A stretch of DNA of 43,979 bases from Candidatus Heimdallarchaeota archaeon. Its GTDB lineage: Archaea; Asgardarchaeota; Heimdallarchaeia; JABLTI01. The stretch covers positions 1-43,979 of the forward strand of contig JABCTZ010000023.1 of assembly GCA_018238155.1 (NCBI GenBank). Reading direction: 5' to 3'. The translations under genes were made by a program, and so were the position numbers. Below the pieces are notes generated by a model. That model had not been told where the DNA came from and did not search any database. It saw only the letters and a list, made by a program, of their open reading frames with translations. Of this stretch, positions 1 through 18,049 are shown piece after piece (the first letter of the stretch is position 1; each line of letters begins with the position of its first letter).

Positions 1-481
1 TTGAACCATTTTCTTGTGCTGAAGTCCAATAAAGAAGCTTTCCTTTCCCTTGTGTGTAGAACAACATCATTCCGAAAGGAAGTAAAGCATTCATACAATT
101 CCGGATGAAGTTTTCAGTTGCTAGTAATTGACGATTGGATGACTCTTGAATAGCTGTTTGCGATTCTTCTTCACTAATATCTGTCCAATCTGGTAAAGAA
201 ATGATCTCTAAAATGGCTATTTGATTATCAGATGGAATGTTTGATTCACTTTGATAATTAAGATTAGCAGATGTTCTGAATTTATTTTTTCTCTTGATAT
301 ATCGAATAGTTAAAACTGCTCCCAGAATAAAAATCAAGATGATAAAAATCCAAAAAACCCAGGTGAAAAATGATTTGAACGCTGTATTAATCTCTGTTAC
401 TGATATTGAGAATAACACCACTAACGCTATTAAGACAACAATAATTATGAAACCATCTGAACCACTACTCTCATCAGTCAT
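1..481 (-). CDS. Membrane-anchored protein, N-terminal part only (runs off the left edge of the window)
   Basis: Manually translated from ATG at 481-479 (MTDESSGSDGFIIIVVLIALVVLFSISV...WVFWIFIILIFILGAVLTIRYIKRK...). Frame is open to position 1 and has two hydrophobic helices. Absent from the ORF track because it lacks a stop. Confidence 0.7.
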   Translation of the reverse strand, partial: MTDESSGSDGFIIIVVLIALVVLFSISVTEINTAFKSFFTWVFWIFIILIFILGAVLTIRYIKRKNKFRTSANLNYQSESNIPSDNQIAILEIISLPDWTDISEEESQTAIQESSNRQLLATENFIRNCMNALLPFGMMLFYTQGKGKLLYWTSAQENGS

Positions 482-640
482 CTTTGCTTAGCAACCTGTA
501 CTACTCGTACACGCTACTAGTTTGTTGCTGACGACAAAATAAAAAGACCACAGAAAAAAGAAATTTTAGTAATTAATCTTGAAATTCCATGAATTGATTT
601 GAATCTAGTAAAGTTATAATGTAATTAGTAATGCTTCATT

Positions 641-1690
641 TCAAGCTTTGTTTTCATCATCTTTTACTTTGTTTAAAGATAATTCTAACAATATTGCATA
701 AGCGTGGTAATGATAACTCACAGATATGTAATAGATGATAAAAGTTAACATTTGCAGTTGCTGATTGATTTTTGTAAATTGTTCATAACTAAATTTCTCT
801 GATTCTTTTGAATTATAATTAATTAGAACATAATCATCAATTATTTCACATTTTCCTTTTTCATCTAGATGATGTATTACTAAATTTCTTATTTTATTAA
901 TTCCCTTTTTACCATATACCCATTCGTAGATCATCAGAATTTTCAGAAGAGTAGGCTTATTTGAAAGATAATCTTTTAACATTGGATGATCTTTATCCAT
1001 TTTACGTGTATGGTATAATTGACTTTTTTTTAGTTTCTTACCATTTTTTAGTGACTTCTCTAGATATTTGGAATCATGTGAATTTAATTTTCTAATTAAT
1101 ATTAAAATTAGTGTTGAAAGTAGAATGAAAGTTTCATATGTTTGGCTTAATTTTGCAAACAAATCAATAAAATATTCTTTTAATTCAATTGAAGAAACTG
1201 TTCGAGTTTCAACTTCATCCTTATATTCAATCCATTCTATAGGTAATGGATCTTTCTTCCATTCTTCTTTTAATTTTCTTAATTTTAATCTGTATTCTTC
1301 AATACTTTCGGGTCGCATTTTTGTTATTCTATCTATATTTTCAAAATAACTAATCACTTTTGTTTGTTGAATATTTTGTTCATCAATTAATGAAAAGTCA
1401 TCCAATTGTCTTTTAGTAAATCTGTGAATTTTTAATCTCTTACCAAATTCCAAAACTGCTTCAGTTAAATCAATAGTATCTCTAATCTTAAACTGAGTGT
1501 CAAACAAATTGTTAAACAATTGCATTATTAAACTAGCAAATTCCTGATGAGTATTTTCTTCTAAGAGAATCTCTCTACCAAATGTTTCTTCAATAATAGC
1601 TAAATAAAAATCCCTGTATTGTTTCAATAGTGTTATACTTTCTTTTATTGAATTTAATTCATTTTCTTCCTTATTATTCATTGAAATCAC
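641..1690 (-). CDS. Helical protein with C-terminal HEPN-like RNase motif
   Basis: 349-aa ORF. INKIRNLVIHH matches the HEPN R-x4-H motif in an all-alpha context. Confidence 0.55.
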   Translation of the reverse strand: MISMNNKEENELNSIKESITLLKQYRDFYLAIIEETFGREILLEENTHQEFASLIMQLFNNLFDTQFKIRDTIDLTEAVLEFGKRLKIHRFTKRQLDDFSLIDEQNIQQTKVISYFENIDRITKMRPESIEEYRLKLRKLKEEWKKDPLPIEWIEYKDEVETRTVSSIELKEYFIDLFAKLSQTYETFILLSTLILILIRKLNSHDSKYLEKSLKNGKKLKKSQLYHTRKMDKDHPMLKDYLSNKPTLLKILMIYEWVYGKKGINKIRNLVIHHLDEKGKCEIIDDYVLINYNSKESEKFSYEQFTKINQQLQMLTFIIYYISVSYHYHAYAILLELSLNKVKDDENKA

Positions 1691-2924: not shown

Positions 2925-4918
2925 TGAAGAAATTACTCGAAGATACAAAATATCAAGAGCATCAAATTCGACCTTTGATTGATTTTTTAGATCAAGAAAA
3001 GAAATTTGAACAAGCTGAAATTTTTGAACAAATGCGTTTTGCTGGTTATGTACTAGATATTAGTTATGATAAAGTAACTATTATTACATCTGATCCATTC
3101 AAGAAGCTTGTTGGAGGTATACCTAGAAATTCTCTACTAGTTATGATTCCTGATAGTTTTGAAGAAATGCCACCGCATTTTACACTATTAAGGGTACTAG
3201 AAGCTGCTGCAACTCCTCTAAAAAAAGAGGTTCAACAAACATATTTTGAACTGCAGAAAAGCTCAATGCCCGAGTTAGATATTTTTACTCAATCGGAACT
3301 TCAGTGGGGAGCTTTAAAAACCGATGTTATTGGTATGTTTTATCCTCATCCAGATAGATTGAATAAAATTGAATTCTCCGGGGACATAAATAATTTTGTG
3401 AGTGCTCATATGTATAAGGTTTATTCACCAAACAAAGAGTTGCTAAATCTTATTATAAATAGTTCTGTTGAAGAAGAACAATCTTTTCCCCTTGGTAAAC
3501 TAAGGTTTACTGAATGTAGATTGAATCATCAAAGCTGTGAATATTCAGACTTAGATGTTTCTATTTCACCTAGAGATTTTCTAGCAACAAGAACAGCAAT
3601 GTTTGGAAAAACCAGATTAGGAAAAAGTAATATTGTAAAAATTATTGCACAAAGCTTAGTCGAAACAACCAACGAAGAAAGAAATGTTGGACAATTAATA
3701 TTTGATATAAATGGGGAATATGCAAATGATAACCCACAAGATGATAATCTGTCATTGGCAAGTGTTTATGAGCAGAATTGTGTCGTGTATGCATTAACCC
3801 AAAAACCAAATACACCTTCACGATCATTACGGATTAATTTTTATGAATATCCAGAAGTGTCTATGACAATTTTATCAAGATTAATTAAATCCACGCGAGG
3901 TAGTTTATCTAATTATATTGACAATTTTATTAACTGTAATTTACCTTCATTGGAGGATTTATCAGATAATCAATTAGAACATAATATTCGACTAAGATCC
4001 AAAAGAAGGATATTGATGTATTGGGCTTTATTGTATAAAGCAGGTTTTACGGTTGACCAAAATGCTCTGATACAATTGATGCGTGATCATTCCACTGTTA
4101 GGGGTGCCCCATTGGACCCTGGATATAGACGAGAATTGCGAATTGCGATGTATTCTAGCACGCCACCTCAAATTACTAATTTAAATGAATTAGTTACTGA
4201 ATTTGAAACAATATACCAGTTTTTCAGAAACAATAGATCCGCTGAAGAGCTGAGATCTGCAAATGGTAATTTATTAGTTACAAATGATGATGAATCAATA
4301 TTATATATGTTAAATCCACCAACAGGTTCAGGATATAGAATTCTCCCCCCATATCGTGATTATCATGATCAAAATGCTGGAGAATTTATTCAAGAAATAA
4401 TCAATTTACTTGAAGATGGATTAACAGTGATTATTGATTTAGGAAATGCTCCTCCTGAAATAATGAATTTCTACTCAGATCAATTGGCAAGAGCGTTATT
4501 TAACAATCAAGTTAATAAATTCTCTAGAAATGAATTAGGAGATCATTATATACAATTATACTTTGAAGAAGCACACAATCTATTTCCAAATCAAGATGAT
4601 TATAATAAGGATATATACAGAAGATTAGCTAAGGAAGGAGCAAAGTATCATATTGGAATGGTTTACTCAACTCAATCTGTTACAACTATTAATCAAGATT
4701 TATTAGCACAAACTGAAAATTTCTTTGTTGCACACTTGTCTTCAAAAAATGAAGTAAATAGGTTAGCAAATATAAATTCAGCTTTTGATGGGTTGCAAGA
4801 TGATATTTTAAGATCGAAAACAGTTGGCTTCATCAGATTATTAACTAGGTCTCATAGATTCGTAATTCCAGTTCAAGCTAAAAAATTTAGTTTGATTGAG
4901 TCAAATGGTGAGGAATAA
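2924..4918 (+). CDS. herA: HerA/FtsK-family (DUF87) ATPase
   Basis: Walker A FGKTRLGKS, IFDINGEY, Walker B FEEAHN, AKEGAKY, STQ. Translationally coupled to the methylase (TAATG). Confidence 0.9.
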   Translation: MKKLLEDTKYQEHQIRPLIDFLDQEKKFEQAEIFEQMRFAGYVLDISYDKVTIITSDPFKKLVGGIPRNSLLVMIPDSFEEMPPHFTLLRVLEAAATPLKKEVQQTYFELQKSSMPELDIFTQSELQWGALKTDVIGMFYPHPDRLNKIEFSGDINNFVSAHMYKVYSPNKELLNLIINSSVEEEQSFPLGKLRFTECRLNHQSCEYSDLDVSISPRDFLATRTAMFGKTRLGKSNIVKIIAQSLVETTNEERNVGQLIFDINGEYANDNPQDDNLSLASVYEQNCVVYALTQKPNTPSRSLRINFYEYPEVSMTILSRLIKSTRGSLSNYIDNFINCNLPSLEDLSDNQLEHNIRLRSKRRILMYWALLYKAGFTVDQNALIQLMRDHSTVRGAPLDPGYRRELRIAMYSSTPPQITNLNELVTEFETIYQFFRNNRSAEELRSANGNLLVTNDDESILYMLNPPTGSGYRILPPYRDYHDQNAGEFIQEIINLLEDGLTVIIDLGNAPPEIMNFYSDQLARALFNNQVNKFSRNELGDHYIQLYFEEAHNLFPNQDDYNKDIYRRLAKEGAKYHIGMVYSTQSVTTINQDLLAQTENFFVAHLSSKNEVNRLANINSAFDGLQDDILRSKTVGFIRLLTRSHRFVIPVQAKKFSLIESNGEE

Positions 4919-4920
4919 AA

Positions 4921-6228
4921 ATGCCCTATAAAGCTGGAAAATCACTTCCAGGGGAGCGAGCTAGTAAGCTAGGTCATTTGGAAGTATTAGATAGTGAATT
5001 AATAAATGAGCTTCTTGATGAATTTAATACTGAAATTGATGTTACAGAAGTAGATGAAATTGATTGGACTGAAATTTCTAGTGAAGCTACTCCTTTGAGT
5101 TATATTTTTAGTGTAGATGGTTCCTATCAAGAGATAAAACTACAAAGATATAGTCCTGAAAAAATAATTACTTATGTAAAAACAGCTATTCTGAAATTTG
5201 ATCAAAAAGCTATAGAAAAAATAAATAAAAAATATCCTCACCCAATGGAATTAAGAAATGTATTAAAGGGAAGTTCATCATTTCATGCGACAGTATTTCC
5301 TCTGAAAAATGTATCAAAATCTGATCAAAATGTCTATAACACAAACAGAGAAATCATTTTTCGTTCATTACAGGACCCTCTACTAGAAAATTTACCATTT
5401 GAAACATTTAAATGGTTAGCTTATGAAAAATGGTCAAATGAACAGAAATCATTGCCTTTATTTGATTGTCCTCATTGTAGAGAAAAAGTTGCTACATTAG
5501 CATATGATCAAAATATTGGACAATGTTCAGGATGTGGTAATGATATTTATGTTACAGATATGTTAGGATTTCATTTAGATATGAATGATAATTGGGCACC
5601 AACTCAAATTGCTAGTACATACATGTTGTTGCATGAAACATTCTTGTTATTTTCCGGAATAAAATACTTTTGGGAGAACAATAAAGAAATTTTAACTGAA
5701 TGTTTATTTTTAAAGGATGGTCCTCTGTATATTCGTGCTCAATATTCTAAACTTGTAGCACCCATTAGACGATTTTTAGCTCATGCACGTAATGAGGGAT
5801 ATGAAATTCATATAGCAGGGCAAGAAAAAAGTGGTCGCTTCTTTGACTATCTTGAGATAATTGCCAAGGATTTGAATACTCCAAGCTTTTTCATACCAGA
5901 TAATAGATATATACTTGAAGATATCCAACATAGACCAATAACTAGTATGCCATATGGTAAGGATACAAATTATGGCGCAAAAGTCTTTGTTATTGTAGAT
6001 AAAAATCACAAATTTGTTCTAACTATACCAACTGGTGAATTCAATGAAACTCCTACACATACTTCAATAATTGGATTTGATAGAATATTAGCTACTTTAC
6101 CTAAGATTTTGAGTTATAAATTCGAAGGAGCTCTATTGCCAATTGAATTAGCAAATAAAATAGCCTCTTTATCAACATATCCATCCGCTCAGATTCTAAA
6201 GTTGTTTACAGAATCTAAAGGTCTATAG
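4921..6228 (+). CDS. nurA: NurA-family nuclease with CxxC...CxxC insertion
   Basis: SVDGS, LKDGPL, GQEKSG and PIELANKIASL NurA motifs; CPHC/CSGC pair; directly follows herA. Confidence 0.85.
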   Translation: MPYKAGKSLPGERASKLGHLEVLDSELINELLDEFNTEIDVTEVDEIDWTEISSEATPLSYIFSVDGSYQEIKLQRYSPEKIITYVKTAILKFDQKAIEKINKKYPHPMELRNVLKGSSSFHATVFPLKNVSKSDQNVYNTNREIIFRSLQDPLLENLPFETFKWLAYEKWSNEQKSLPLFDCPHCREKVATLAYDQNIGQCSGCGNDIYVTDMLGFHLDMNDNWAPTQIASTYMLLHETFLLFSGIKYFWENNKEILTECLFLKDGPLYIRAQYSKLVAPIRRFLAHARNEGYEIHIAGQEKSGRFFDYLEIIAKDLNTPSFFIPDNRYILEDIQHRPITSMPYGKDTNYGAKVFVIVDKNHKFVLTIPTGEFNETPTHTSIIGFDRILATLPKILSYKFEGALLPIELANKIASLSTYPSAQILKLFTESKGL

Positions 6229-6240
6229 ATAATTAAGTCA

Positions 6241-8487
6241 TTAAACGAACCAAGCAATATTCTGGAATCCGTGAGGATAAATTCCTAATTCATTATATTT
6301 TTCAAGCATTAATTTTGGATAGTGTATTGTAATTGGTAATTTTGATAGACCATGAGTAACATGCTGATTAACTCTTGCGAGCATATGAATTCTTTCAATT
6401 ATTTCTTTTGTTAATTCTTCATCATTTGGATACTTAAGTTCAATCTTTATTGGTTTTGGAGTTCCCTCTCTAACTAATTCAACTGAGCTAGCTAATAACC
6501 CATTTCTTGAATCTAAAATTACATAAGATCCAGTTTGTGGTTTCTTATCATTCATACTTCTATCGAATAATCTTATTGGACCAATATTATCTTTTACTAA
6601 AATTATCCTTCTTGGATTCAATATCTCAATAATATCATTTAATTCATCGAAAATTTCACCATGCCAATGAATCTCAATTTGACTTTTCACCTCTAAGGTG
6701 GTGATTTTTTGATTTAATCTCACTAATGTTTCTCTTATATTCTCTACCTTCTCTATTAATCCATATTTCCATTCGCCATAATGACCCACAACTGATATCA
6801 TCATCAGTTTAATTTTATTATCATATTTTAAACCGATTGAAATATAATCCATTTTCTTACTTAGATGCCAACTATTTCTACCAAGATTATGATAAAGACC
6901 AAGAGAAATATTCCTAAGTTTGCCTAAATAACGTGTTCTATTATTATCAGGAATTGTACATTGAACACCAATTTGTTCCTCAAAGCATTTCTTATAGATT
7001 TTACTTTTTATATTATCAGATTTACTGCTAATAACTGCAAAAACAACTTGATTGTCCCCATCCTTTTTAATCTCGTCTATATTTGTCAAATATTTTACAG
7101 TAATTTTTTGAAATTTGAACATTTTTTGTAAACCATGAAATTTCTGTTTTTCAGCATTTCTAGGTACTCCATATATTAGATCATTAACAATATCATCACA
7201 TTTTTCTGTAGATATAACAATCAATTCAAGTGTTTTATTCAAGTTTTCACTATAATCAATAGGTCCGTATTTATATAGTGAATAATAAGGGTCATCAACA
7301 TTTTTTGATTTGCCAATCTTTCTTTTTGGTATATCTAGTATACCATTATTAATTCCATTATAGAGGGTTTGATTAAACCCAAGAATTCTTCCAAACGATT
7401 CAAATTCTTTTAGAATTTCCAATTGTTTTAGAATTCCAAATCTTCGTTCATCGGGGCTACTTCTTAGAAAGTCCATAATTTCTTGTCTATCTTCTCTTTT
7501 TTTGATTTTTCTAAAATCTACTTTCTCTCTTAATCTTTCTAAAGGAAATGTATATTCTCTACCCTTATAGGTTTTTACAATTGCTAGTGGTGGAGAATTC
7601 GAAATGAAATCTTGAATTATATTTAATTTACATTCTTCTTGAGCAAATTCTAAAATTGTTTTGCCTGAATCCTTTGGTTTAAAATCATGTGCACTTTTTG
7701 AATAATCAAACTTGCTTAAATAGTAAGAACTAGTTTTTGTTAATGGTGAAAGATTACAGGGATTTTCAGCAACAAATTTACATTTAAAATTCGGACAACA
7801 ATCCCAAAATTGTATTCTTTCTCCATTTTTCACTCTTCTTTCTAAATTATTTAATTCATTTGGTTCTAAATCTTTCAGTGTTCTCTTGATAATCATTAAA
7901 TTTGATCTATCAATGGCAATACCATATGAATTATTGTAATTAGTGATTCTAAAAATGAATCCCGGATAATGTAAAACTGTTTCTAAATTCTGAATCTCAT
8001 ATGGGTCCCTAATTTCAAAATCTATTTCTTCAATATTAGGATCAATCCATTGATTGAAAAATCGATTACTTCCAGTTAAAATGTAGCCAGCATTATTTAG
8101 TTTCTCCCCTATAATTCTTTTTAAAATATTTTTAATATTGAGTATTGAATCATTTTTTATGTTCTTATTAGATTTTAACCAAACTAAGTTACAATTACTA
8201 TATAATGTTCTAATATCATTTGAAATTTTACTCAAAAGCCTTTCATCATGACGAATTATAATGTGTAAAACAAGATTCTTTGGATCGTTAGAAATTAAAT
8301 ATTCCTCTTTCTCAATTATTTTAACAAGTTTCTCTCTAATTTGTTTTAAATGTTCATTCTTTTCATCCCAGCTGATATGTTTGTTTTTTAAATCTGCTTT
8401 AAATTGAATATGTTGTATATTTAATTCATTAAAATCTTCATTTAGTAATGATATATTTGTTTCAATATTAGTATTAATTTCCATCAA
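6241..8487 (-). CDS. ago: Long prokaryotic Argonaute, catalytically inactive PIWI, Cys-rich PAZ region
   Basis: L1 (YPGFIFRI..GIAID), PAZ end (YTFPLERL), L2 (LYKYGP), MID (IGVQC..NISLGLY..LG..W.L), PIWI C-terminus (GTPKPIKI..LARVN..SKLPITIHY). Catalytic GID and RDG positions are replaced by GLK and WHG. Confidence 0.8.
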   Translation of the reverse strand: MMEINTNIETNISLLNEDFNELNIQHIQFKADLKNKHISWDEKNEHLKQIREKLVKIIEKEEYLISNDPKNLVLHIIIRHDERLLSKISNDIRTLYSNCNLVWLKSNKNIKNDSILNIKNILKRIIGEKLNNAGYILTGSNRFFNQWIDPNIEEIDFEIRDPYEIQNLETVLHYPGFIFRITNYNNSYGIAIDRSNLMIIKRTLKDLEPNELNNLERRVKNGERIQFWDCCPNFKCKFVAENPCNLSPLTKTSSYYLSKFDYSKSAHDFKPKDSGKTILEFAQEECKLNIIQDFISNSPPLAIVKTYKGREYTFPLERLREKVDFRKIKKREDRQEIMDFLRSSPDERRFGILKQLEILKEFESFGRILGFNQTLYNGINNGILDIPKRKIGKSKNVDDPYYSLYKYGPIDYSENLNKTLELIVISTEKCDDIVNDLIYGVPRNAEKQKFHGLQKMFKFQKITVKYLTNIDEIKKDGDNQVVFAVISSKSDNIKSKIYKKCFEEQIGVQCTIPDNNRTRYLGKLRNISLGLYHNLGRNSWHLSKKMDYISIGLKYDNKIKLMMISVVGHYGEWKYGLIEKVENIRETLVRLNQKITTLEVKSQIEIHWHGEIFDELNDIIEILNPRRIILVKDNIGPIRLFDRSMNDKKPQTGSYVILDSRNGLLASSVELVREGTPKPIKIELKYPNDEELTKEIIERIHMLARVNQHVTHGLSKLPITIHYPKLMLEKYNELGIYPHGFQNIAWFV

Positions 8488-8494
8488 AATTCAC

Positions 8495-9295
8495 TCATCT
8501 TGTTTTAAACTCAATGTCTGTTAGGTAGATTTTTCTATCAGCAAATCTCTCAATTTCCAACTCTACATCATTAGATTCTATATTATCTAATTGATAGAAA
8601 GCCCACCTTAATTCATACAATATTTGTAAAGCTGAAAGTTTGATAAACGTTTTTATAAAATTCTTACCTCTAATTTTACGCAATTCTTCTATTGCATCAC
8701 GAAGATTCCTATTTACTGGTTTTAATATAATATTCAACCAAATTTCATATTTATCTTCATAGGATCTAAAACAAATACTTGCTTCACTTTCTAGCTCCAT
8801 AGGAATTTTTCTATCGTTATTTAAGAGAAGTTTTATTGCATTGTCTTGGTAATCGGAATTAAAACCTCTTTTAATAAGCAGATCAGGAATTATATTTATA
8901 TGATCTTTACTTATATCAAAATTCAAAGAGTAAGTGAAATTAATATATGGACTTTTTTTCTTACCCAATTTATCTCTTAATTCATTTAAGAGTCTAAAAA
9001 AATAAATTCCTTTATTTGTTAACTTAAATGGGTCTGTATGTTTTGTACCAATTTTTTCTATAAGATTCGTTTGCTTTAGAATTCTAATATGTTGGTTAAA
9101 TGCTTCTTTTGAGAGTTCTTTATCAATCTGATCTGCTATTTCGATATTCACACTATTCATTAATTCTTGAAATCTTAGTCCTGAACCGGATAATCCAAGT
9201 ATAGAGATAATTCTTCTTCGAAATATATTATTTGTGACTTCAAAGAACTCTACAAACATTTTTTCGGATAACATTGTGTAATTCAATATACACAA
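8495..9295 (-). CDS. Winged-helix (ArsR-like) transcriptional regulator with unknown C-terminal domain; true start may be a few codons downstream
   Basis: RRRIISIL..GLRFQEL..SKEAFNQHIRILKQTNLIEK..FKLTNKG wHTH pattern; 7 bp upstream of the inactive Ago. Confidence 0.75.
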   Translation of the reverse strand: MCILNYTMLSEKMFVEFFEVTNNIFRRRIISILGLSGSGLRFQELMNSVNIEIADQIDKELSKEAFNQHIRILKQTNLIEKIGTKHTDPFKLTNKGIYFFRLLNELRDKLGKKKSPYINFTYSLNFDISKDHINIIPDLLIKRGFNSDYQDNAIKLLLNNDRKIPMELESEASICFRSYEDKYEIWLNIILKPVNRNLRDAIEELRKIRGKNFIKTFIKLSALQILYELRWAFYQLDNIESNDVELEIERFADRKIYLTDIEFKTR

Positions 9296-9392
9296 ACTCT
9301 CTCTCTTTTTATACTTTTGTCTTAAAGTGTATTTTTAATTACAAACAATATTAATATATCTCATAAATCTATAGTATAAATGAGGAAAAATC
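9296..9392. promoter_or_regulatory. Divergent promoter region between the two Argonaute arms
   Basis: ~100-bp AT-rich gap between divergent operons, with TATA-like tracts (TTTTTAAT, TTAATATA) and GAGGA before ATG 9393. Confidence 0.55.
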
Positions 9393-9707
9393 ATGTCAAA
9401 ACACAAAAAAACCTCAATACATGACAAAAAAGTTCAGGCAACTACCTCTCGATATAAGCGTGATGGTTGGTCTGTTCGAGCTGATATACCTAACTACAAA
9501 CGTCCTAAACCTATTGGTAAATACAATAGGATACCTGATGTAGTAGCTAGGAAAGGAAAAAAAACTAGGGTTTTTGAAATAGAAACTCCTAGGAGTATGA
9601 AAACTGATCGTGCACAAAGAAGCACTTTCAAGAAACATGCAGCTAAGAAATTGAATACAAAATTCAAGGTAATAGTCGCAAAAAAGCCAAGAAAGAGAAA
9701 ACGTTGA
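9393..9707 (+). CDS. Small basic PD-(D/E)XK-like nuclease
   Basis: RIPDVVARKG..VFEIET resembles a PD...ExE variant of the restriction-endonuclease fold; RBS present. Confidence 0.6.
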   Translation: MSKHKKTSIHDKKVQATTSRYKRDGWSVRADIPNYKRPKPIGKYNRIPDVVARKGKKTRVFEIETPRSMKTDRAQRSTFKKHAAKKLNTKFKVIVAKKPRKRKR

Positions 9708-9759
9708 GTGGTTAAATTTAGATCATTGATCTTACACATCAATGGTCTGAACCACTCAA
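9704..9759 (+). other. Strong stem-loop (10 bp + 5-nt bulge + 12 bp, 7-nt loop) inside the Argonaute operon
   Basis: TTGAGTGGTT/AACCACTCAA pair perfectly; TAGATCATTGAT/ATCAATGGTCTG pair with two G-U wobbles. Confidence 0.8.
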
Positions 9760-9783
9760 TTTACCCATTTAGGTGAATAAAAA

Positions 9784-10044
9784 TTGAACAAAGAAAGTAA
9801 TAAAACTTTTGTTGAAAGCAACAATCAAAATTCAATCGATAACTTCCATGAAGAGAATCAAATTGCTTTTTTCATCAAGGAGATTTCCTTGAAAGGATCT
9901 CTTTACTTAGAAGATCTAAACTTCTCAAGTGAAAAATTGGAGGAAATAAAGAGTCAAGCTGCTGAAATGGATTTCATTATCCATTTATCTAAAATCGGAA
10001 TATTAATTATCGATCCTAGTTTCCTTGGAGGTAATTCAGAGTGA
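9784..10044 (+). CDS. Small acidic hypothetical protein coupled to Argonaute
   Basis: 86-aa ORF; AGGTGA RBS; stop overlaps the Ago GTG start (GTGA). Confidence 0.65.
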   Translation: MNKESNKTFVESNNQNSIDNFHEENQIAFFIKEISLKGSLYLEDLNFSSEKLEEIKSQAAEMDFIIHLSKIGILIIDPSFLGGNSE

Positions 10045-12170
10045 CAATTAATGATTCCGAACATGGAATTCTAGGAGTTCTTTTGGAATCTAGTACAAAG
10101 CTACTAGTTCAGATTTCTGATTTAATAGGTCTCAGATCTTCAGATAAGAATAAGCTTCACACAATAAATTACGCAAACTTGAAATCTCCTTTTCCTCTTG
10201 CAGCTTATGCTGCAAATGGAAATCATTATATTATTAGTTACCTTAATGAACAAATTCCTCGCACAAAGATTTCTTTTAGAAGAAATAATTTAATAATTTC
10301 CCCAGGAACAGTTTCCCAAATTGAATTAGACATCCATCAACAAAATTCTCGAATTGCACTTAATTCTTTACACAATAAAGTTGTTACAAATGCATTAACT
10401 AACGATGGATTTGAAAGAGCAAGAACGTTAGGTGGAAGAGACAAATCAAAACTTGCATCTAAGGAATTGATTGATACCTTATGCATGGATCATAGTTATA
10501 CTGATTTTGAAACTGGTAAACGAGAAATTGAAAAAGTTAATTATGAACTTCATAAAGCCATTAAGAAAAGCATGCAAATTCTTCCTTCTGGAAATATGCT
10601 TGTCACTCTAAATCCATCAACAATAATCATACGAGATGGATATGTTCCTTATACTTACTATCAGCTTCCAAATAAAGTAATCCGAAAATTTAATCCTTAT
10701 TGGAGAATGACAGGATTTAAAGCACTCAAAGAGTCAGAATATCCTTCAGCACTAATTGGAAACGAATTCGAAAATAGAGGATTTTCAATTCTTAATTCAG
10801 GTATTATTCATTTTCCCCTAAAAATAATTCAACTTCCTCCTCCTAAATTTGTCTTTGGTAAAAAGAAGAAACTGGTTCTAGAAGGAAATCAAAAAACTAG
10901 AGAGCTTATTAAATTAGGTTTGAAATCATTTGGACCAATATACAAACCACGAAAATTGAAGATACTAGTTGCTACTGATACTATTGAAATGATTGATCAA
11001 AGAAAACCACCAAAATATTTTTCATCTTGGCCTTTTGCATTCAAAAAATATATAAAATTAATTAGAAGAAAATTGGTGAAGGGTGATAAATCCTTATTCC
11101 ATGTCAATTCTGTTGATTTTGTTGGACCTGTTTATCTCAAAGGAGATCCTAAAAGTTATTTGTCAATGCTAAGAGATTTGGCTAAGAAAGAATCTGTTGA
11201 TGCTATTCTTTATATTATTGCTGAATATAAAAAAGACAAAACAGGTATGCATGATCTAATTAAGGAATATGTAAAAGATGTCCCTACTAAATGCATTTTG
11301 ATTAAGAAACTTAAGAAACATACTCCCAAATCAAAGGAAGGATATAGTCCATTATTTTTACAGATTGCTGATGATTTAGTAATTGGTTTATATTACGCAG
11401 CAACAAGATATTTCCCATGGTCTATTGAATCCAAACATTTTGATAGTGTAGTTGGAATTGATGTTCGACGGGATAAACAAACTCGTTACTATTGCATTAC
11501 GCTTACACTTTTCACAAACAAAGGTCTTATCCGAATATCTAACGGAAACAAAATGAAAAAGGGAGAAAATATACCCATTTCTGCACTTACAGATTCTATT
11601 GAAAAGCTTATTCTTCGAGTAAAAGAGCGGAATCTAACTTTTCAAAACACTCTCTTTCTTAGAGATGGTTTTGATTTTACTGATGAGAAAGAAGCAGTAA
11701 AAGATATTCTGGACAAACACAAAATTGAAGGGACTCTAGACGAGAAACATCAATGGATTTACTGTCAAATTATTAAAAATCCCGAATTACGAGTTATTCA
11801 TTCACCTTCATTAGATGAACCTTCAAGATGGGGGCAACCATCTCGAGGTATTGCATTTGTATTAGCAGATTTACCAGAATGGAAAGAAGGTTACATTGTT
11901 ACAACTGGATATCCTGATATTGGTAAAAAGACCAAATCCAAAGCATCTAATCAAGGGCTTTCTCAACCCATTTTCGTTCGCGAGCTAGAAAGATCTACTA
12001 ATAATTCTACAACTTTCCCAGAGGTGCTTGAAACAATTTACCATAGAACCTATCTTAATCCTAGTTTAACTCAAATTAGAGTTCCTATTGAGATTCCTGC
12101 TGCTGAAAAATACATGGAATATCTTAGCTATGGGCTAAGTACTGAAGAAATTCCTGGATATTTGGGGTGA
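10041..12170 (+). CDS. ago: Prokaryotic Argonaute with PAZ apparently reduced or absent and a putative catalytic tetrad D474-E509-D542-E689
   Basis: L2 (LPPPKFVFG..GLKSFGP), MID (PTKCI..LVIGLYY..FPW), PIWI VVGIDV, FLRDG, IIKNPELR, GLSQPI, RVPIEIPAAEK. Confidence 0.85.
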   Translation: MTINDSEHGILGVLLESSTKLLVQISDLIGLRSSDKNKLHTINYANLKSPFPLAAYAANGNHYIISYLNEQIPRTKISFRRNNLIISPGTVSQIELDIHQQNSRIALNSLHNKVVTNALTNDGFERARTLGGRDKSKLASKELIDTLCMDHSYTDFETGKREIEKVNYELHKAIKKSMQILPSGNMLVTLNPSTIIIRDGYVPYTYYQLPNKVIRKFNPYWRMTGFKALKESEYPSALIGNEFENRGFSILNSGIIHFPLKIIQLPPPKFVFGKKKKLVLEGNQKTRELIKLGLKSFGPIYKPRKLKILVATDTIEMIDQRKPPKYFSSWPFAFKKYIKLIRRKLVKGDKSLFHVNSVDFVGPVYLKGDPKSYLSMLRDLAKKESVDAILYIIAEYKKDKTGMHDLIKEYVKDVPTKCILIKKLKKHTPKSKEGYSPLFLQIADDLVIGLYYAATRYFPWSIESKHFDSVVGIDVRRDKQTRYYCITLTLFTNKGLIRISNGNKMKKGENIPISALTDSIEKLILRVKERNLTFQNTLFLRDGFDFTDEKEAVKDILDKHKIEGTLDEKHQWIYCQIIKNPELRVIHSPSLDEPSRWGQPSRGIAFVLADLPEWKEGYIVTTGYPDIGKKTKSKASNQGLSQPIFVRELERSTNNSTTFPEVLETIYHRTYLNPSLTQIRVPIEIPAAEKYMEYLSYGLSTEEIPGYLG

Positions 12171-12177
12171 TTAAAAA

Positions 12178-13128
12178 ATGGTTAATCTCTACGCTCGGGC
12201 TATGGCCCGTGTGAATATTTGTGAAGAAGCAGCAATAATACATGCTTTATTACAATATGCTGACCTAATGCCTGAGGATGTTTGGCATGGTTCTGAAGTG
12301 AAAAGAATAAAGGGTGCGCTTCTTCATGACATTTTCTTGGAATTGATTGGTCCAATAGGATGTTCGCTTATCTCTTCTTTTTTGGATAGAGGGATGTCAA
12401 AAAATAACGCAATGTTTGATACGTTAGATTTACTCTATAGGAATAGTTCATGGAAACCTTATGTTTCATCACTAATTGAAACAGAATACAATCAACCAAT
12501 TTCTCTATCAATAATACAAGAATATCTTTCACACAAAGAAAGCCTTGTTGAATTAGCTTTACCCTTATTAACCAGTTATAAAGGAGAGTTGTATCCAATA
12601 CAATTTGACAAAGAGGTCTATATTCAATATCCAATAACTCAGGAATTCACAATAGCCGGAAAAATCGATTTATTGATTATTCATACTAACAAAATCATTG
12701 TAGTTGATTTAAAGACTGGTAAAAAAAATATCAAAGATCATTTACAAGTTCAATTATATGTTGAAATGCTTCAGAATAAATTCCCTGACAGAGAAATAGT
12801 TGGACAATTGTGGTATATATCAAAAGATGATTCCATAAGAAAAACAATTGACTATGGTGAACCTTTACTACCAAAAATTCATTCTATTATTAATAAGTTG
12901 AAAGAAATTGACTCAATTGAATTCCTGGTTAAAAACAAAGGAAAAAGAAAGGATTGCAAATATTGCAAATTATGCGATATAGCTCAAACAGAATTAATAA
13001 TCACTTTGCCAGAAATAGCTGAAGGATTGTCAAAAGTTGATGCGCTACCCAATAATCTTTTAAAACTTGTAGGTTTAAGTAATGAAAATCTAATTCTAGA
13101 TAAAGAAGGTGAAAAGGAAATTGACTGA
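12178..13128 (+). CDS. Cas4/AddB-like PD-(D/E)XK nuclease with possible Fe-S cysteines
   Basis: GALLHD, GKIDLL..VVDLKTG, QVQLY (QxxxY), N-terminal Cys plus C-terminal CKYCKLC. Confidence 0.85.
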   Translation: MVNLYARAMARVNICEEAAIIHALLQYADLMPEDVWHGSEVKRIKGALLHDIFLELIGPIGCSLISSFLDRGMSKNNAMFDTLDLLYRNSSWKPYVSSLIETEYNQPISLSIIQEYLSHKESLVELALPLLTSYKGELYPIQFDKEVYIQYPITQEFTIAGKIDLLIIHTNKIIVVDLKTGKKNIKDHLQVQLYVEMLQNKFPDREIVGQLWYISKDDSIRKTIDYGEPLLPKIHSIINKLKEIDSIEFLVKNKGKRKDCKYCKLCDIAQTELIITLPEIAEGLSKVDALPNNLLKLVGLSNENLILDKEGEKEID

Positions 13129-13951
13129 AGTTGGAATATACATTTTATTGAGCATGATACTTGTTGTTGGAATAGCAATAATAATTTCTATCTGGTATTT
13201 ACAGAAGAAGAAACAACCAGATTTTGATCATCTGAATAATGAAATCTATAAAGTAGCTACAAATATGAATAGTGAAATTCAAAAACTATTTCATACTATC
13301 CAAATGAAACCAACTGCAACAGGTGCTTTTGGTGAGAATATTGCGGATATTGTTTTGTCACATTTGCCAAAAACTATGGTTACATCTCAATACAGACCAA
13401 AGGATATTCGAGGTAGCAAAATTGATTTCGTTGTAAAACTACCAAATAGTGATTTGCTTTTGCCTATTGATAGCAAATTTACTATTCCTGAGGATCTCGG
13501 TGATATTGAGAATCTCGATAAGAAGAAAATTAATGCGCTTAATAAATTTGCACTAAATCAAGCGAGCAAAATTGAGAAATATATTAGTTCTAAGGAAACT
13601 ACTGATTTTGTTCTGATGTTCCTTCCTGATTATGTTTATGGTATATTAGAACCCGATACCTTTGATAAATTAGCTCATAAGAAGGTCGTCCCAACTAATT
13701 CGAGTGGATTGCTTAGTACAATATTCATGATAAATATGCAGCATCGTTTCACTGAATTAAATAGTTCAGCTAGTAAATTTGCAGATATCCAAATGAAAAC
13801 ATCTCAAGGTTTGAAATCAGTAATCGATAATATGCAAAAAGGACTTACAAAGATACTGCAATGCCAAAACAATATTTCTGATGCAATGTCTGAAATTGTT
13901 GCTATAAAGAATATTGTTGAAACTTTAGAATCTGAGGAGGTGATAGATTGA
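13109..13951 (+). CDS. rmuC: RmuC-family nuclease with N-terminal transmembrane helix
   Basis: GAFGE, IDFVVKLP..LPIDSKF, TDFVLMFLP; hydrophobic N-terminus; coiled-coil C-terminus. Confidence 0.85.
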   Translation: MKRKLTEVGIYILLSMILVVGIAIIISIWYLQKKKQPDFDHLNNEIYKVATNMNSEIQKLFHTIQMKPTATGAFGENIADIVLSHLPKTMVTSQYRPKDIRGSKIDFVVKLPNSDLLLPIDSKFTIPEDLGDIENLDKKKINALNKFALNQASKIEKYISSKETTDFVLMFLPDYVYGILEPDTFDKLAHKKVVPTNSSGLLSTIFMINMQHRFTELNSSASKFADIQMKTSQGLKSVIDNMQKGLTKILQCQNNISDAMSEIVAIKNIVETLESEEVID

Positions 13952-14214
13952 AACAAATAAAAGATTTGATGAAATTCACGTTCACACGTATTGACAAAAG
14001 TGGTTATAGGAAAGTAAGACTAGTAGATATACCTGTTCATCGTATAACCGGAACAATTAAACAAGGTCGACTTCTTCGAAATGGTGATGTGGTTCATCAT
14101 AAGAATCAAAATAAATTAGACAATCGTTTAAGTAATCTTCAGATATTTAAAAACCAAAGTGCCCATATGAAGCATCATTGGAAACTTCGAAAACAGAAGA
14201 GTAAGAAAAAGTGA
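13948..14214 (+). CDS. Small HNH endonuclease
   Basis: VHR..VVHHKNQNKLDNRLSNL HNH motif; GGAGGTG RBS; TTGA overlap with rmuC. Confidence 0.85.
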   Translation: MKQIKDLMKFTFTRIDKSGYRKVRLVDIPVHRITGTIKQGRLLRNGDVVHHKNQNKLDNRLSNLQIFKNQSAHMKHHWKLRKQKSKKK

Positions 14215-14436: not shown

Positions 14437-15711
14437 ATGTTAAGGTTGATTAGGTTAGACAGTTTTGATGAAATCGAAAAAAGATTGGAATTTATTTCAA
14501 ATAAAATTCTTGAAGTTTATTCAAACCAATATGAGTCAAAATTTATCTCTCTAGTAAATTTATTAATTGAAGAATTTGGAATTACCAATATATTGCGAGG
14601 AGAAAGGAAATTATTTTATGTATCAAATTTGAATATAAAATCAAATCCATTAGATTTAGTCATTACTTTTTATAATGAGAAAAATCTCTGTAACAAAATT
14701 CTAGATGAAATCTGTCAAGAGCTGAAAAATAGAAGCCCTTCTGGAACAAATTTTTCAATTACAGAAAATAGAATAATAATTAATTTTCAAGATGAGAAAG
14801 CTGATTATTCAATTATATATGTTCCTAAAAGTGAATTTGAAAATCTAATACCATATTTTCAATTACTACCTGATAATATGGATTTACTTAATAAAGGAAT
14901 AGCATTGCTAAAATATTGGAATGAAAACGAAAATTATTCACTTCATTATTCTCACAACATAGAATATTATATTATTTCAAATAAATGGGTGAAGAATTTG
15001 TATACTATTATTGATAATTTCAATTATGATATGGATTATGAACACCTTGAAATAACTGAATGGTTAATATATAAATCAGATATTATTGGTGAGGAGTATA
15101 TATTGGTTGAAGAGGAAAAATTACTAACTAAATTAGCTAATAGATTAGCTCAAGAATCGCAAGAAAAATATGACTCTCGTTTTATTTCTGTTGTTAATAC
15201 ATTGCAGAATAATATGCAAGTATCTGAAGTAAGAAGAGGTGGCTCAAGAGCGAAACTAACCTACAATATAGGTAAAGGTGATCTTGATATTATTTTTACA
15301 ATCGTTAATACCACCAAAACTCATTTAGAAATTTTTGAAGAAACTAAGAAAACTCTTGAAGCAAATTTTGGAAAAATTGCCACAATAACCCCTCTAAGAG
15401 TTTCAGTTAAGTTGCACTTCATTGATGATAATCTTGATATTGATGTTGTTTATTTACCTTATTCTGAATACCTGACTAGTGTAAGGGATTTATTGAAAGT
15501 GAAAGAAACTTCCAAAATTAGACGTGATGCAATCCGCTTGATAAAATTCTGGAATGAAGAAAATAATCAGCGAAGAATTACACCAATGGATATTGAGAAA
15601 ACTATACTATCATGGAATTATAATTCATTGTATAATAACATCGTTCAATTCGGTGAATTAAATGGCTTTGAAATGATGGTCTATTTTTGGTTAGAAAAAC
15701 AAAAAATCTGA
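14437..15711 (+). CDS. Tandem two-domain OAS/CD-NTase-like nucleotidyltransferase (N-domain degenerate, C-domain intact)
   Basis: C-domain RRGGSRAKLT..GDLDII..IDVVYLP..IRLIKFWN. N-domain is an internal paralogue (YESKFIS/YDSRFIS, LDLVITF, IIYVP, IALLKYWNE) lacking GS and the full DxD. Confidence 0.75.
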   Translation: MLRLIRLDSFDEIEKRLEFISNKILEVYSNQYESKFISLVNLLIEEFGITNILRGERKLFYVSNLNIKSNPLDLVITFYNEKNLCNKILDEICQELKNRSPSGTNFSITENRIIINFQDEKADYSIIYVPKSEFENLIPYFQLLPDNMDLLNKGIALLKYWNENENYSLHYSHNIEYYIISNKWVKNLYTIIDNFNYDMDYEHLEITEWLIYKSDIIGEEYILVEEEKLLTKLANRLAQESQEKYDSRFISVVNTLQNNMQVSEVRRGGSRAKLTYNIGKGDLDIIFTIVNTTKTHLEIFEETKKTLEANFGKIATITPLRVSVKLHFIDDNLDIDVVYLPYSEYLTSVRDLLKVKETSKIRRDAIRLIKFWNEENNQRRITPMDIEKTILSWNYNSLYNNIVQFGELNGFEMMVYFWLEKQKI

Positions 15712-15725
15712 GAGATGAATAAGAA

Positions 15726-16352
15726 TTGGAATTGACAAAGGAAGAGAAGATACTTAATTCATATGGTAGTAAAATTAGAGATACAGAGACAGAATCCTTT
15801 GATTCAAAATATATCTCCATTTACAACAAATTAAATGAACACTATAAAATATCACAGGCAATGAAAGCTGGATCATTAGGAAAAGGAACAAAAATTGAAT
15901 TATATGGTGATCTCGATTTAACTTTCACAATTGATAAACCTTCTATCAAAAATGAAACTGAATTTCGAAAGGATTTGGAAATAAAGATGAAGAAATCTTT
16001 TCCAAATGAATTTGTTAAATTGTTAAAAATGTCAGTTTTAATTAAATTCAAAAGTGGTATCGAAATAGATGTTGTTTATTTACCTTTAAATGACTATAAC
16101 AAGACGAGAAAACAATTCAGGCACATTAAATCAATAAATGATAATATAAAAAATATCATTCGCTTAGTGAAATTTTGGAATTATAAGAAAAACAAGAAGC
16201 AATTTAAATCTTATAAAATCGAATGGAATGCAATTTATTCTGAAGCCAGTTCATATAATAAAAGATTAAGGGATACAATTTCAAAATCAGGTGGCGGAGA
16301 TACAACAAATGAAATTTATCAATTCATTTTGAATGAAGCTGAAGGAAGTTAA
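15726..16352 (+). CDS. Single-domain OAS/CD-NTase-like nucleotidyltransferase
   Basis: KAGSLGKGT..GDLDLTF..EIDVVYLP..IIRLVKFWN..SYKIE. Confidence 0.8.
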   Translation: MELTKEEKILNSYGSKIRDTETESFDSKYISIYNKLNEHYKISQAMKAGSLGKGTKIELYGDLDLTFTIDKPSIKNETEFRKDLEIKMKKSFPNEFVKLLKMSVLIKFKSGIEIDVVYLPLNDYNKTRKQFRHIKSINDNIKNIIRLVKFWNYKKNKKQFKSYKIEWNAIYSEASSYNKRLRDTISKSGGGDTTNEIYQFILNEAEGS

Positions 16353-17211
16353 GAACATGAATTTCTATTTAAAATTAAATGAAAATCTTTGCAATATAAA
16401 ACCTAAAATATTACAAATTTTAAAGGAACGGAAGATAATTGTTAGAAAAAAAGAAAATGATGATTTTCAAGTTTTTTGGGAAGATAACTCAGAGAAACCT
16501 TACATTCAAATAATTTCAGATCTCAAATTTGTTTTAGATGATTATATTGAGTTTCAGAATAGTATTGGCAGAGATATTTATGATTTGCTTTCACCATCTG
16601 AGGAAAGAAAATACAAGTCAATTTTAAATTTAGTAAGAAAGGATATTTGGTTTGATCCTAACGTTCATTCTCAATATAAAAAAGAAGATAATAAATTCTA
16701 TTGCTATTATAGGGGTAATATCCAAGAAAAATTCTTTGCGGAAACAAATTTAGATAAAGCTAAAGAAAGAATGATTAGAAATTGTAGAAATGAGCTGATT
16801 GATTCCTTTCAATTAAAATTTGATTCAATACTAGTATACTTAGATAATGAATTCAAAAGATTGGATATTATAATTAATCAAATGGTTAAAAATTCTGATA
16901 AAGCATCAAAAATCTATAATTATGGCTTAAAAATATTAGAAGACGACTCCACTATTGCAATGATTTTACTTGGAGTATCTCTTGAGTGCCATTTAAAAAT
17001 GAATTATAATGCAGATATTTTAGAAAAAGATTCACTAGGTAAGCTTATTGGTAGATTAAAAGAATCCAAAAAATATCCAAATTTAAATTATAAATTAATT
17101 AACGAAATCAATATTAAATATATCAAAGCTAAACATGAAAAAACTGCTGTAATCCCCTATTTAGACGTTGAGAAGTATTATCAAAAAGCTACAATTTTCT
17201 TTCAACATTGA
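16333..17211 (+). CDS. Hypothetical protein with C-terminal HEPN/DUF4145-like helical domain (alternative start 16357)
   Basis: AMILLGVSLECHLK..SLGKLIGRL..INIKYIKAKH follows the HEPN helix pattern, but the Arg of RxxxxH is missing. Confidence 0.5.
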   Translation: MKLKEVKNMNFYLKLNENLCNIKPKILQILKERKIIVRKKENDDFQVFWEDNSEKPYIQIISDLKFVLDDYIEFQNSIGRDIYDLLSPSEERKYKSILNLVRKDIWFDPNVHSQYKKEDNKFYCYYRGNIQEKFFAETNLDKAKERMIRNCRNELIDSFQLKFDSILVYLDNEFKRLDIIINQMVKNSDKASKIYNYGLKILEDDSTIAMILLGVSLECHLKMNYNADILEKDSLGKLIGRLKESKKYPNLNYKLINEINIKYIKAKHEKTAVIPYLDVEKYYQKATIFFQH

Positions 17212-17398
17212 GAAATGATATCATTGTTGAAAAGATTTTTGATCTTTGATAAACGAAGGATTTTCTTGAATTTGTAATGTTTTATATAATCATTTAACAC
17301 ATTTCAAATTGAATCTTTTATCTCTATATCCATTAGAACATTGATTCTATTAAACAAAACCACATTGCTGTAGATTTCACTCTACAATACCTTTCGAC

Positions 17399-17893
17399 TT
17401 GTCCACTATGATCACTAATGAACTAAAATCACTAAACCACAAAAATCGAATACGAATACTTAGCTATCTCAATGGTCATCCATCAGGAGAGAATTTTCTT
17501 ATTGCATTTTTAATTTCTCGCCTTTCCGATTTCACACCATTTAACAATTATCCTTATATTTACAGGTATGAGCATTTTGTTAGACCTCCTTACTCACAAT
17601 TTGGAAAATACGATTTAATTCTTACAAGTGGAAGAAAGTATTTCTTGGTTGTTGAAGCAAAATATTTCCAAGATGGAATAGCTAAATCAACAATTAAAAA
17701 TAAACGATCTAAAGTAAGAAAACAAGCTAGGAAATATAGAGGAATCTTTCAACAACATAATCCTTCTTTTATTGTTTATTGTACTACCATTACAAATAAT
17801 AAATCTTGGACAAATGAACATCCTGAGTTTCTAAAAGAATTTTCTAAATTTCAAACTCTAAAGCAAAAAGAATGGAAAAAAAGACTTTTCTGA
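17399..17893 (+). CDS. PD-(D/E)XK nuclease-family protein
   Basis: GKYDLIL..LVVEAKY..RKQARKY (D..ExK..QxxxY). Confidence 0.7.
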   Translation: MSTMITNELKSLNHKNRIRILSYLNGHPSGENFLIAFLISRLSDFTPFNNYPYIYRYEHFVRPPYSQFGKYDLILTSGRKYFLVVEAKYFQDGIAKSTIKNKRSKVRKQARKYRGIFQQHNPSFIVYCTTITNNKSWTNEHPEFLKEFSKFQTLKQKEWKKRLF

Positions 17894-17924
17894 ATGAATT
17901 ACACCACAAATTATCAGATTTCAA

Positions 17925-17998
17925 GTACTTACCTCCAAAGCGTGTCAATTACCGAAATGGTCTTTTAGACTTAAGAAGAAGTATGGTGGGAGTCATAC
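17925..17998 (+). repeat. Palindromic element copy R3 (5' block)
   Basis: GTACTTACC..AAGCGTGTCA.TTACCGAAATGGTCTTTTAGAC..AAGAAGAAG; shares an extended 5' flank with 23582. Confidence 0.85.
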
Positions 17999-18049
17999 TT
18001 TGTTTAAGAATGGTTCATCCACAATTTTATTAAAATGAAAATGTAAAAG

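Follow-up and report, generated by a model that had tools for sequence, protein, structure and literature searches.

A conserved pairing of two Argonautes with a Cas4-family nuclease in Asgard archaea, probably a defence module

We analyze a window of 43,979 nt (contig JABCTZ010000023.1, assembly GCA_018238155.1) from Candidatus Heimdallarchaeota archaeon, an Asgard archaeon whose assembly spans 4.08 Mb and is 90.7% complete. The locus studied, positions 6241–14214 of this window, contains eight open reading frames (ORFs) arranged as two diverging operons, each with its own Argonaute gene (Table 1). We conclude that the locus is probably a conserved two-Argonaute, Cas4-assisted defence module of Asgard archaea. 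The parts that recur are a catalytically dead full-length Argonaute with four characteristic cysteines (Ago1), mostly with a small partner protein encoded before it, here one with a winged helix-turn-helix (wHTH) domain; another Argonaute, from a distinct lineage (Ago2 in the window); and, at most loci, a Cas4-family iron-sulphur (Fe-S) nuclease. Several lines of evidence argue for this reading: the folds and catalytic status of the two Argonautes, the conserved layout, the same pair in other gene orders, the co-occurrence of the pair in 10/10 cases, congruent Argonaute trees in one of the two forms of the locus (type B, below), Cas4-like motifs kept in 12/12 homologues, and a defence-island context with a Dam methylase and HerA, SMODS-like nucleotidyltransferases and an HD protein. 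An initial annotation of this DNA had placed eight ORFs here, all of which are confirmed, and had two PIWI genes diverging from a gap of about 100 bp, which measures 97 bp (9296–9392).

Both proteins are indeed Argonautes, as that annotation had proposed: each matches the prokaryotic Argonaute (pAgo) models of PADLOC, and the structure models of both contain the MID-PIWI fold. For Ago1 the PADLOC matches are at 8.7e-29 and 1.6e-26. A three-sequence profile searched with HMMER against 1.84 billion representatives gave 164 matches, about 30 of them full-length relatives, and the AlphaFold2 (AF2) model built on 25 relatives has a predicted local distance difference test score (pLDDT) of 84.9 and a predicted template modelling score (pTM) of 0.83. 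Foldseek matches this model to Siwi (4.5e-30) and CbAgo (5e-29), and structural alignment with VIA covers 633 of the 684 residues of TtAgo (Z 33.4) and 655 of the 746 residues of CbAgo, in both cases over model residues 3..747. The MID-PIWI lobe aligns with AfAgo over 378..747 (VIA Z 31.4, 343 aa), and chains that consist of MID-PIWI alone begin aligning to Ago1 at ~374–386. The sequence profile aligns to CpAgo and CbAgo from residues 222 and 217 on, respectively, and residues 150–345 map to PAZ/ArgoL1 clusters with a language-model score of 0.89, which we use as a lead only. Judged from the model, Ago1 is thus a long-form Argonaute with an N-L1-PAZ-L2 lobe.

The catalytic positions of Ago1 read G-L-K and H-W-H-G, with no aspartates. 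Specifically, the position of the first PIWI aspartate is K in Ago1 and Q, K, V or S in its closest relatives, and that of the second is H in Ago1 and R, D or Q in the relatives. Because the DEDX tetrad is absent, Ago1 is predicted to be inactive. The end-to-end long-Argonaute fold, with K and H where the aspartates should be, agrees with the earlier proposal that the left Argonaute has a PAZ domain and lacks catalytic residues. In alignment A4, of 25 sequences, the PAZ region has four cysteines that never vary (C231, C236, C244 and C286 in ORF numbering; C230, C235, C243 and C285 in P0004 numbering); they follow the pattern C-P...C...C-x-L-S...C and form a probable metal site. The C-terminus carries a conserved WF motif. 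The MID motif of the Ago1 subfamily is K-x3-Y...Q, and more distant members have the canonical Y-x3-K...Q.

Ago2 matches the PADLOC pAgo model at 2.6e-19 and Pfam Piwi at 2.4e-4, and its AF2 model, built on 14 sequences, has a pLDDT of 80.1 and a pTM of 0.84. In this model the N domain is followed by long L1 strands (124–198) that run straight into the L2 helices (211–244), and MID-PIWI starts at ~256–260. Residues 260..709 align with AfAgo both in 1ytu (VIA Z 31.9, root-mean-square deviation 2.9, 380 aa) and in 8ok9 (Z 31.2). The number of TtAgo residues that VIA aligns to Ago2 is 549–574 (~110 fewer), as against 633 for Ago1, and position 206 of the Ago2 profile meets CbAgo residue 287, so ~80 residues are missing at the place of the PAZ domain. 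Ago2 is accordingly modelled without a PAZ domain. The initial annotation had argued that a 709-aa protein leaves almost no room for one: the absence is upheld by the fold and the profile alignment, but the length argument fails, since TtAgo has a PAZ domain and is 685 aa long.

The first three residues of the Ago2 tetrad are D474, E509 and D542, none of which varies among six partner Argonautes. At the fourth position the window has E689; the related loci L001, L003, L008 and L049 described below have E as well, L006 has H and L009 has Q. These positions were assigned by sequence alignment, not by inspection of the model, and on that basis the tetrad D474-E509-D542-E689 appears intact. The MID motif is of the HK type (H404/K408), and nearly all members of the family keep K408. 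Among solved structures the Ago2 profile comes closest to the long-A pAgos CbAgo (1.8e-26), CpAgo and KmAgo, and by sequence the Ago1 family is also nearest to these same long-A pAgos. The two profiles compared directly give no significant match (hhalign E 0.48), so that Ago1 and Ago2 are not recent duplicates. A phmmer search of the PDB sequences with either protein returned nothing useful; the PDB relatives came from profiles. The short-pAgo and SiAgo-like classes were also considered and rejected, as the N-terminal lobe is in the same chain in both Ago1 and Ago2, and Pfam and PADLOC gave no APAZ, TIR or SIR2 match among the locus proteins.

The gene immediately after Ago2, starting 8 bp past its stop, encodes a Cas4-like protein with matches to PDDEXK_1 (5.8e-12) and Cas_Cas4 (3.6e-8) in Pfam and to TIGR00372 (1.4e-9). 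Residues C15, C260, C263, C266, D164, (D/E)xK179, Q190 and Y194 are conserved in 12/12 homologues, giving the Fe-S layout of one N-terminal and three C-terminal cysteines. Searched against the PDB, its profile matches the nuclease domain of DNA2 (1e-8), a 277-aa chain of 9iac (4.9e-5), which we take to be ACE1, and Cas4 (6.3e-4).

These features invite comparison of the right arm with APACE1. In that system ACE1 and a long-A pAgo pair up as a heterodimer, and small interfering DNA (siDNA) guides are trimmed or made by ACE1 (PMC12094033). The likeness is threefold: a competent Argonaute (here predicted) is co-encoded with a Cas4-family nuclease of ~280–320 aa that has the D...(D/E)xK motif; the nuclease has the 1+3 cysteine Fe-S ‘iron staple’ and, in the window, hits 9iac; and among solved structures Ago2 is closest in sequence to long-A pAgos. 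One feature of an APACE unit, a nuclease with Cas4-family motifs and four Fe-S cysteines co-encoded with a predicted-active pAgo, is found here. However, APACE1 is cyanobacterial and has one Argonaute, with a PAZ domain, whereas the window comes from an Asgard host, its Ago2 is predicted to be PAZ-less with E as the fourth residue, and a second, dead Argonaute with a wHTH partner is the constant neighbour. The window nuclease also scores better against DNA2 than against 9iac, so that it is at most a candidate member of the ACE1 clade.

The left arm invites a different comparison. The long-B systems BPAN, BPAS and BPAM are reported to have a dead full-length pAgo encoded beside nuclease effectors, with target recognition proposed to switch on the effector (PMC10620215, PMC13535254). 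Ago1 is likewise full-length, dead and encoded beside nucleases, but its profile scores place it nearer to long-A pAgos (CpAgo 1.8e-44, CbAgo 4.7e-43) than to the long-B RsAgo (~1e-9), it has the four-cysteine site in its PAZ region, and its constant neighbour is another Argonaute rather than a single effector. AfAgo and AfAgo-N provide a third comparison: they are reported to form a PAZ-less Argonaute assembled from two chains (PMC10954474, PDB 8ok9). Ago2 resembles this pair and SiAgo in combining a PAZ-less N-L1-L2 with MID-PIWI, and its MID-PIWI lobe is structurally closest to AfAgo. However, AfAgo and SiAgo are inactive and split, whereas Ago2 has all domains in one chain and a tetrad that looks complete.

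Related loci contain the same pair in several arrangements. L001 (GCA_019058195.1), L003 and L010 have the same six-gene core as the window; L010, the one locus returned by a metagenome scan with profile A6, is essentially identical to L003. In L008 the genes for an 88-aa protein, an Ago2-like protein, a Cas4-like protein and an Ago1-like protein lie on one strand, with the wHTH gene diverging. In L006/L007 and in L009 (genome G084, same genus as the window) a predicted-active Argonaute of 731–759 aa diverges from a wHTH gene and an Ago1-like gene; the second Argonautes of L006 and L009 belong to a different clade, and after the one in L009 come RmuC, a DnaQ-like exonuclease and HNH. In L049 an Ago1-like gene and a 235-aa gene diverge from a 706-aa predicted-active Argonaute and a PDDEXK gene. 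We call the window form type A; in it the second Argonaute retains D-E-D as the first three residues of the tetrad. A contig profile scan with A2 gave no match, and word-based homologue searches found 2 relatives of Ago2 and none of Ago1.

In type B, the commoner form among the loci examined, the second Argonaute is ~600 aa long and dead. The operon consists of a Cap4-like nuclease or metallophosphatase, a ~230-aa protein, an Ago1-like protein, a protein of 589–633 aa and a Cas4-like protein. Adjacent ORFs overlap in L014, L045, L047, L051, L052, L053 and L055, and L050 is cut off after the second Argonaute. The first gene encodes a Cap4-like nuclease of 346 aa in L047 (Pfam Cap4_nuclease 9.7e-10) and a metallophosphatase of 433 aa in L052 and L053. 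The ~600-aa proteins are members of the Ago2 family (hhalign probability 99.2%, E 7e-20, 543 aligned columns) that have lost the catalytic residues, and the ~230-aa proteins upstream of the Ago1-like genes have no detectable similarity to the wHTH protein of the window (hhalign E 0.47). A Cas4-like nuclease is present at most loci. Two further loci, L011 (3109–6239) and L012 (1401–4570), each contain a DUF7347-type wHTH gene, an Ago1-family gene and then a gene for a ~294-aa protein of the archaeo-eukaryotic primase (AEP) small-subunit family (DNA_primase_S 2.8e-12).

We counted how often the two families occur together in 400 genomes of the phylum, taking E <= 1e-120 as a strong match to the Ago2 family. 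An Ago1-family gene is present in 12 of these genomes: 11 copies are full-length, counting that of the window's own genome, and the twelfth is truncated at a contig end. All ten strong Ago2-family matches lie directly beside an Ago1-family gene, a test that is partly circular because neighbours of Ago1 genes were the source of the Ago2 profile; a whole-genome search of the 400 genomes found no strong Ago2-family member elsewhere. In the eleventh Ago1-family genome, G056 (L013), a different pAgo diverges from the Ago1-like gene, and G157 (L054) has no second Argonaute within the contig. The association of the two Argonautes, for which the initial annotation had named chance juxtaposition as the alternative, is therefore conserved: it recurs in other genomes, in several gene orders and with every strong match adjoining.

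The two arms have nevertheless not always travelled together. Between the three closest loci the right arm is well conserved (identities of 69–76% for Ago2, 65–78% for the AHJR-like protein, 49–57% for the Cas4-like protein and 48–57% for the 86-aa protein p86) and the left arm much less so (23–38% for Ago1 and 22–30% for the wHTH protein). In the Ago1 tree L001 groups with L009, whereas in the tree of second Argonautes L001 groups with the window and L003, and L009 with L006, all with support 1.0. This disagreement implies that arms have been exchanged among type A loci, which partly explains the gap in identity between left and right. Type B behaves differently: the clade is monophyletic and the well-supported groupings agree in both Argonaute trees, i.e., the arms are co-inherited.

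Exchange of this kind raises the question of whether two independent pAgo systems have simply clustered in a defence island, one made of the wHTH protein and the dead Ago1 with a separate effector, the other an APACE-like unit of Ago2 and the Cas4-like nuclease. The faster evolution of the left arm would fit this, as would the Ago1-like genes that lack a second Argonaute in L011, L012 and L054. It is harder to reconcile with the adjacency of all ten strong Ago2-family matches to an Ago1-family gene, or with L008 and all type B loci, where the pair shares a single operon whose ORFs overlap. Above all, the type B trees are congruent, and there the two Argonautes are both dead and share one Cas4-like gene, which independent systems would hardly explain. 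We consider such independence unlikely.

At the other extreme, Ago1 and Ago2 could form an obligate heterodimer in which the Ago1 PAZ domain handles the 3′ end and Ago2 slices, acting on one guide-target duplex or on the two strands of a duplex. The features of the window are complementary in just this way, with PAZ and a dead PIWI in one protein and an apparently intact tetrad without PAZ in the other; the overlap of starts and stops in type B fits stoichiometric production; and AfAgo with AfAgo-N is a precedent for a PAZ-less Argonaute made of two chains (PMC10954474). However, the complementarity, which the initial annotation had put forward for the pair, holds in the window's clade and is not general: the second Argonautes of type B are dead too, and those of L006 and L009, at 731–759 aa, are of another clade. 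Arm exchange also speaks against a tightly co-evolved interface; it argues for a functional partnership that tolerates swaps of partner. Together these points make an obligate heterodimer improbable. A complex prediction for the MID-PIWI lobes, Ago1 340–747 with Ago2 245–709, returned ‘no answer’ (score 0.00) and counts neither way.

For the conserved two-Argonaute module that we favour, a mechanism can be proposed by analogy, with the right arm working like an APACE-type unit and the left arm like the inactive long pAgos that sense targets. The Cas4-like nuclease, helped by the AHJR-like, RmuC and HNH proteins, would degrade or trim invader DNA into short 5′-phosphorylated guides. Ago2 would load these guides and slice complementary invader DNA. 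Ago1, which would hold both guide ends and be unable to cut, would belong to this pathway too, sensing or recruiting in a guide-dependent manner, and together with its wHTH partner it may direct or license the nuclease arm. Because the arms are swapped between loci, the two Argonautes probably work in sequence or in a loose assembly rather than as a rigid heterodimer. In type B both Argonautes are dead, and the effector role would therefore fall to the Cas4-like nuclease together with the upstream Cap4-like nuclease or phosphoesterase.

Several observations weigh against a two-Argonaute defence module. The fourth tetrad residue of Ago2 is E, outside the D/H/K of tested enzymes, and the MID pocket of Ago1, read from its motif, is non-canonical (K-x3-Y vs. 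Y-x3-K in relatives). In L011 and L012 the Ago1-family gene is accompanied by an AEP-primase-domain gene instead of a second Argonaute, and in L054 there is no second Argonaute within the contig, though in all three cases the contigs are short or partial. Finally, because the arms are incongruent in type A, the Ago1 arm may be an autonomous unit.

A further possibility is that the module works in DNA repair or replication or for a mobile element, for example by processing recombination intermediates or by serving an integrated element in which it resides, and has no role in immunity. RmuC, Cas4/DNA2-like, AHJR-like (a fold related to Holliday-junction resolvases) and HNH proteins are all DNA-metabolism families, an AEP primase domain is coupled to the Ago1-like gene in L011 and L012, and in another Asgard archaeon HrAgo2 is surrounded by genes for transposition and replication (PMC11217426). 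However, defence genes neighbour the core at several loci (methylases, HerA/DUF87, DruA, SMODS-like, Cap4-like, NOV_C and Schlafen AlbA_2), no integrase or transposase was seen beside the core, and the patchy distribution (12/400 genomes) with flanks that differ between loci is what is expected of defence cargo. We therefore regard a non-immune role as very unlikely.

The pairing also recalls eukaryotic silencing pathways with several Argonautes. One could imagine a relay similar to the ping-pong cycle, in which the cleavage products of the slicer Ago2 would, after trimming by the Cas4-like nuclease, pass as guides to the PAZ-bearing, putatively metal-binding Ago1, amplifying or storing the response. 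As in the eukaryotic PIWI ping-pong and with HrAgo1 and HrAgo2, several Argonautes are present in one organism of the Asgard-eukaryote lineage, and PIWI-clade structures such as Siwi are among the top fold matches of Ago1. However, both window Argonautes are closest in sequence to DNA-guided long-A pAgos, and we think it highly doubtful that such a relay operates; if it did, a multi-Argonaute small-nucleic-acid pathway would already have been present in Heimdallarchaeia.

In the Lokiarchaeon that encodes them, HrAgo1 and HrAgo2 are encoded apart, in two operon-like clusters that have different neighbours (PMC11217426). Fifteen clades of Asgard Argonautes have been reported (Bastiaanssen et al., 2024), and PAZ-less Asgard Argonautes have been noted, without pairing (Leão et al., 2024). 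We found no conserved two-pAgo operon described in the searchable literature, subscription-only papers lying outside the search, and in this the judgement of the initial annotation, that the architecture is not a described system, stands. To our knowledge, every characterised pAgo system works with one Argonaute, either by itself or together with an effector that is not an Argonaute. If the reading as a conserved module is true, two Argonautes of different lineages would constitute a new pAgo architecture. It would also be found in a telling place: Asgard archaea are the lineage believed to have given rise to eukaryotes, and the origin of multi-Argonaute silencing in them is an open question. 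The two types, with a predicted-active second Argonaute in type A and a dead one in type B, provide a natural experiment on the interconversion of slicing and effector immunity, and the putative compact PAZ-less slicer and the archaeal Argonaute-associated Cas4 nuclease are candidate tools.

Table 1. Features of the two diverging operons and the region between them, in window coordinates.
Feature	Position	Strand	Description
Ago1 (748 aa)	6241..8487	-	full-length Argonaute, predicted catalytically dead, N-L1-PAZ-L2-MID-PIWI
wHTH protein (266 aa)	8495..9295	-	ArsR/HxlR-like winged helix, N-terminal; directly upstream of Ago1
Divergent promoter region, AT-rich, 97 bp	9296..9392	.	gap separating the two operon starts
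AHJR-like putative PD-(D/E)XK nuclease (104 aa), small, very basic	9393..9707	+	
Conserved long hairpin, stem ~23 bp	9703..9760	+	between AHJR-like gene and p86
p86 (86 aa), no family match	9784..10044	+	stop overlaps Ago2 start
Ago2 (709 aa)	10041..12170	+	Argonaute modelled as PAZ-less, N-L1-L2-MID-PIWI, D474-E509-D542-E689
Cas4-family Fe-S nuclease (316 aa)	12178..13128	+	PDDEXK_1, Cas_Cas4
RmuC-family protein (280 aa), N-terminal transmembrane helix	13109..13951	+	variable accessory
Small HNH endonuclease (88 aa)	13948..14214	+	variable accessory

The partner of Ago1 is a winged-helix protein: profile A12 of its N-terminal domain matches 3df8, a member of the HxlR family, in the PDB (2.2e-7), and the protein matches Pfam HTH_45 at 0.0035, with no match for the C-terminal ~150 aa. 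In type A loci its gene is closely linked to that of Ago1, and homologues lie beside Ago1-like genes in L001, L003, L006, L009, L011, L012, L013 and L049, and in divergent orientation in L008. The protein had been annotated as a regulator; the winged helix is borne out but the regulatory role is a supposition, and it could equally be a subunit. The inverted repeat I1, with 17-nt arms at 9277–9293 and 9327–9343 that are 88% complementary, spans the start of the wHTH gene and the divergent promoter region and is a candidate operator.

The initial annotation had also counted four nucleases as companions of the two Argonautes. All four are encoded here, but as a general rule this holds for the Cas4-like protein, a regular partner, and not for RmuC, HNH and the AHJR-like protein, which vary between loci. 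RmuC (Pfam RmuC 2e-20, with an N-terminal hydrophobic helix) is found in the window, L001 and L009 and is absent from L003 and L010; HNH (Pfam HNH_3 1.1e-8) is found in the window, L003, L010 and L009 and is absent from L001. No loci other than the three closest have the AHJR-like gene, and p86 is confined to these and L008. The 104-aa AHJR-like product matches Pfam AHJR-like at 1.9e-4, below the cut-off, and has a language-model score of 0.97 with 203 shared features, by which it is predicted to be a stand-alone AHJR-like PD-(D/E)XK fold; its profile has no significant match among the PDB sequences. No family match was found for p86 in Pfam, PADLOC and a further family search; it has orthologues in L001 and L003, and the 88-aa protein upstream of the Ago2-like gene in L008 is a relative with 27% identity. 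Because they are patchy across loci, we regard RmuC, HNH, the AHJR-like protein and p86 as accessories rather than core. RmuC, HNH and a DnaQ/RNase_H_2-like exonuclease recur by the predicted-active second Argonaute in varying combinations (L009 3026–4642, L003 13118–16179), which suggests a shared pool of accessory nucleases.

On the left flank, the stretch at 2100–6228 of the window is tightly packed with genes for a Dam-type D12 methylase (2.8e-42), a HerA/DUF87 ATPase (4.1e-13) and a 435-aa protein, and this block ends 12 bp short of the Ago1 stop. The same trio flanks the locus in L003 and is not found in L001. On the right flank, at 14437–20047, a SMODS-like nucleotidyltransferase (a weak match, 9.1e-4) with neighbours that have no family is found together with a 665-aa HD-domain protein; these downstream cassettes are consistent with a defence island.

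The hairpin between the AHJR-like gene and p86 has a minimum free energy (MFE) of −27.3 kcal/mol (z −6.7). Orthologous hairpins are found in L001 at 9670–9722 (MFE −23.0, z −5.5) and in L003 at 9667–9726 (MFE −23.3, z −6.5), and the stem sequences of the three differ while the pairing is preserved. There is no U-tract after the stem, and a conserved AGGTGA lies downstream. In length, the stem is comparable to an Argonaute guide duplex.

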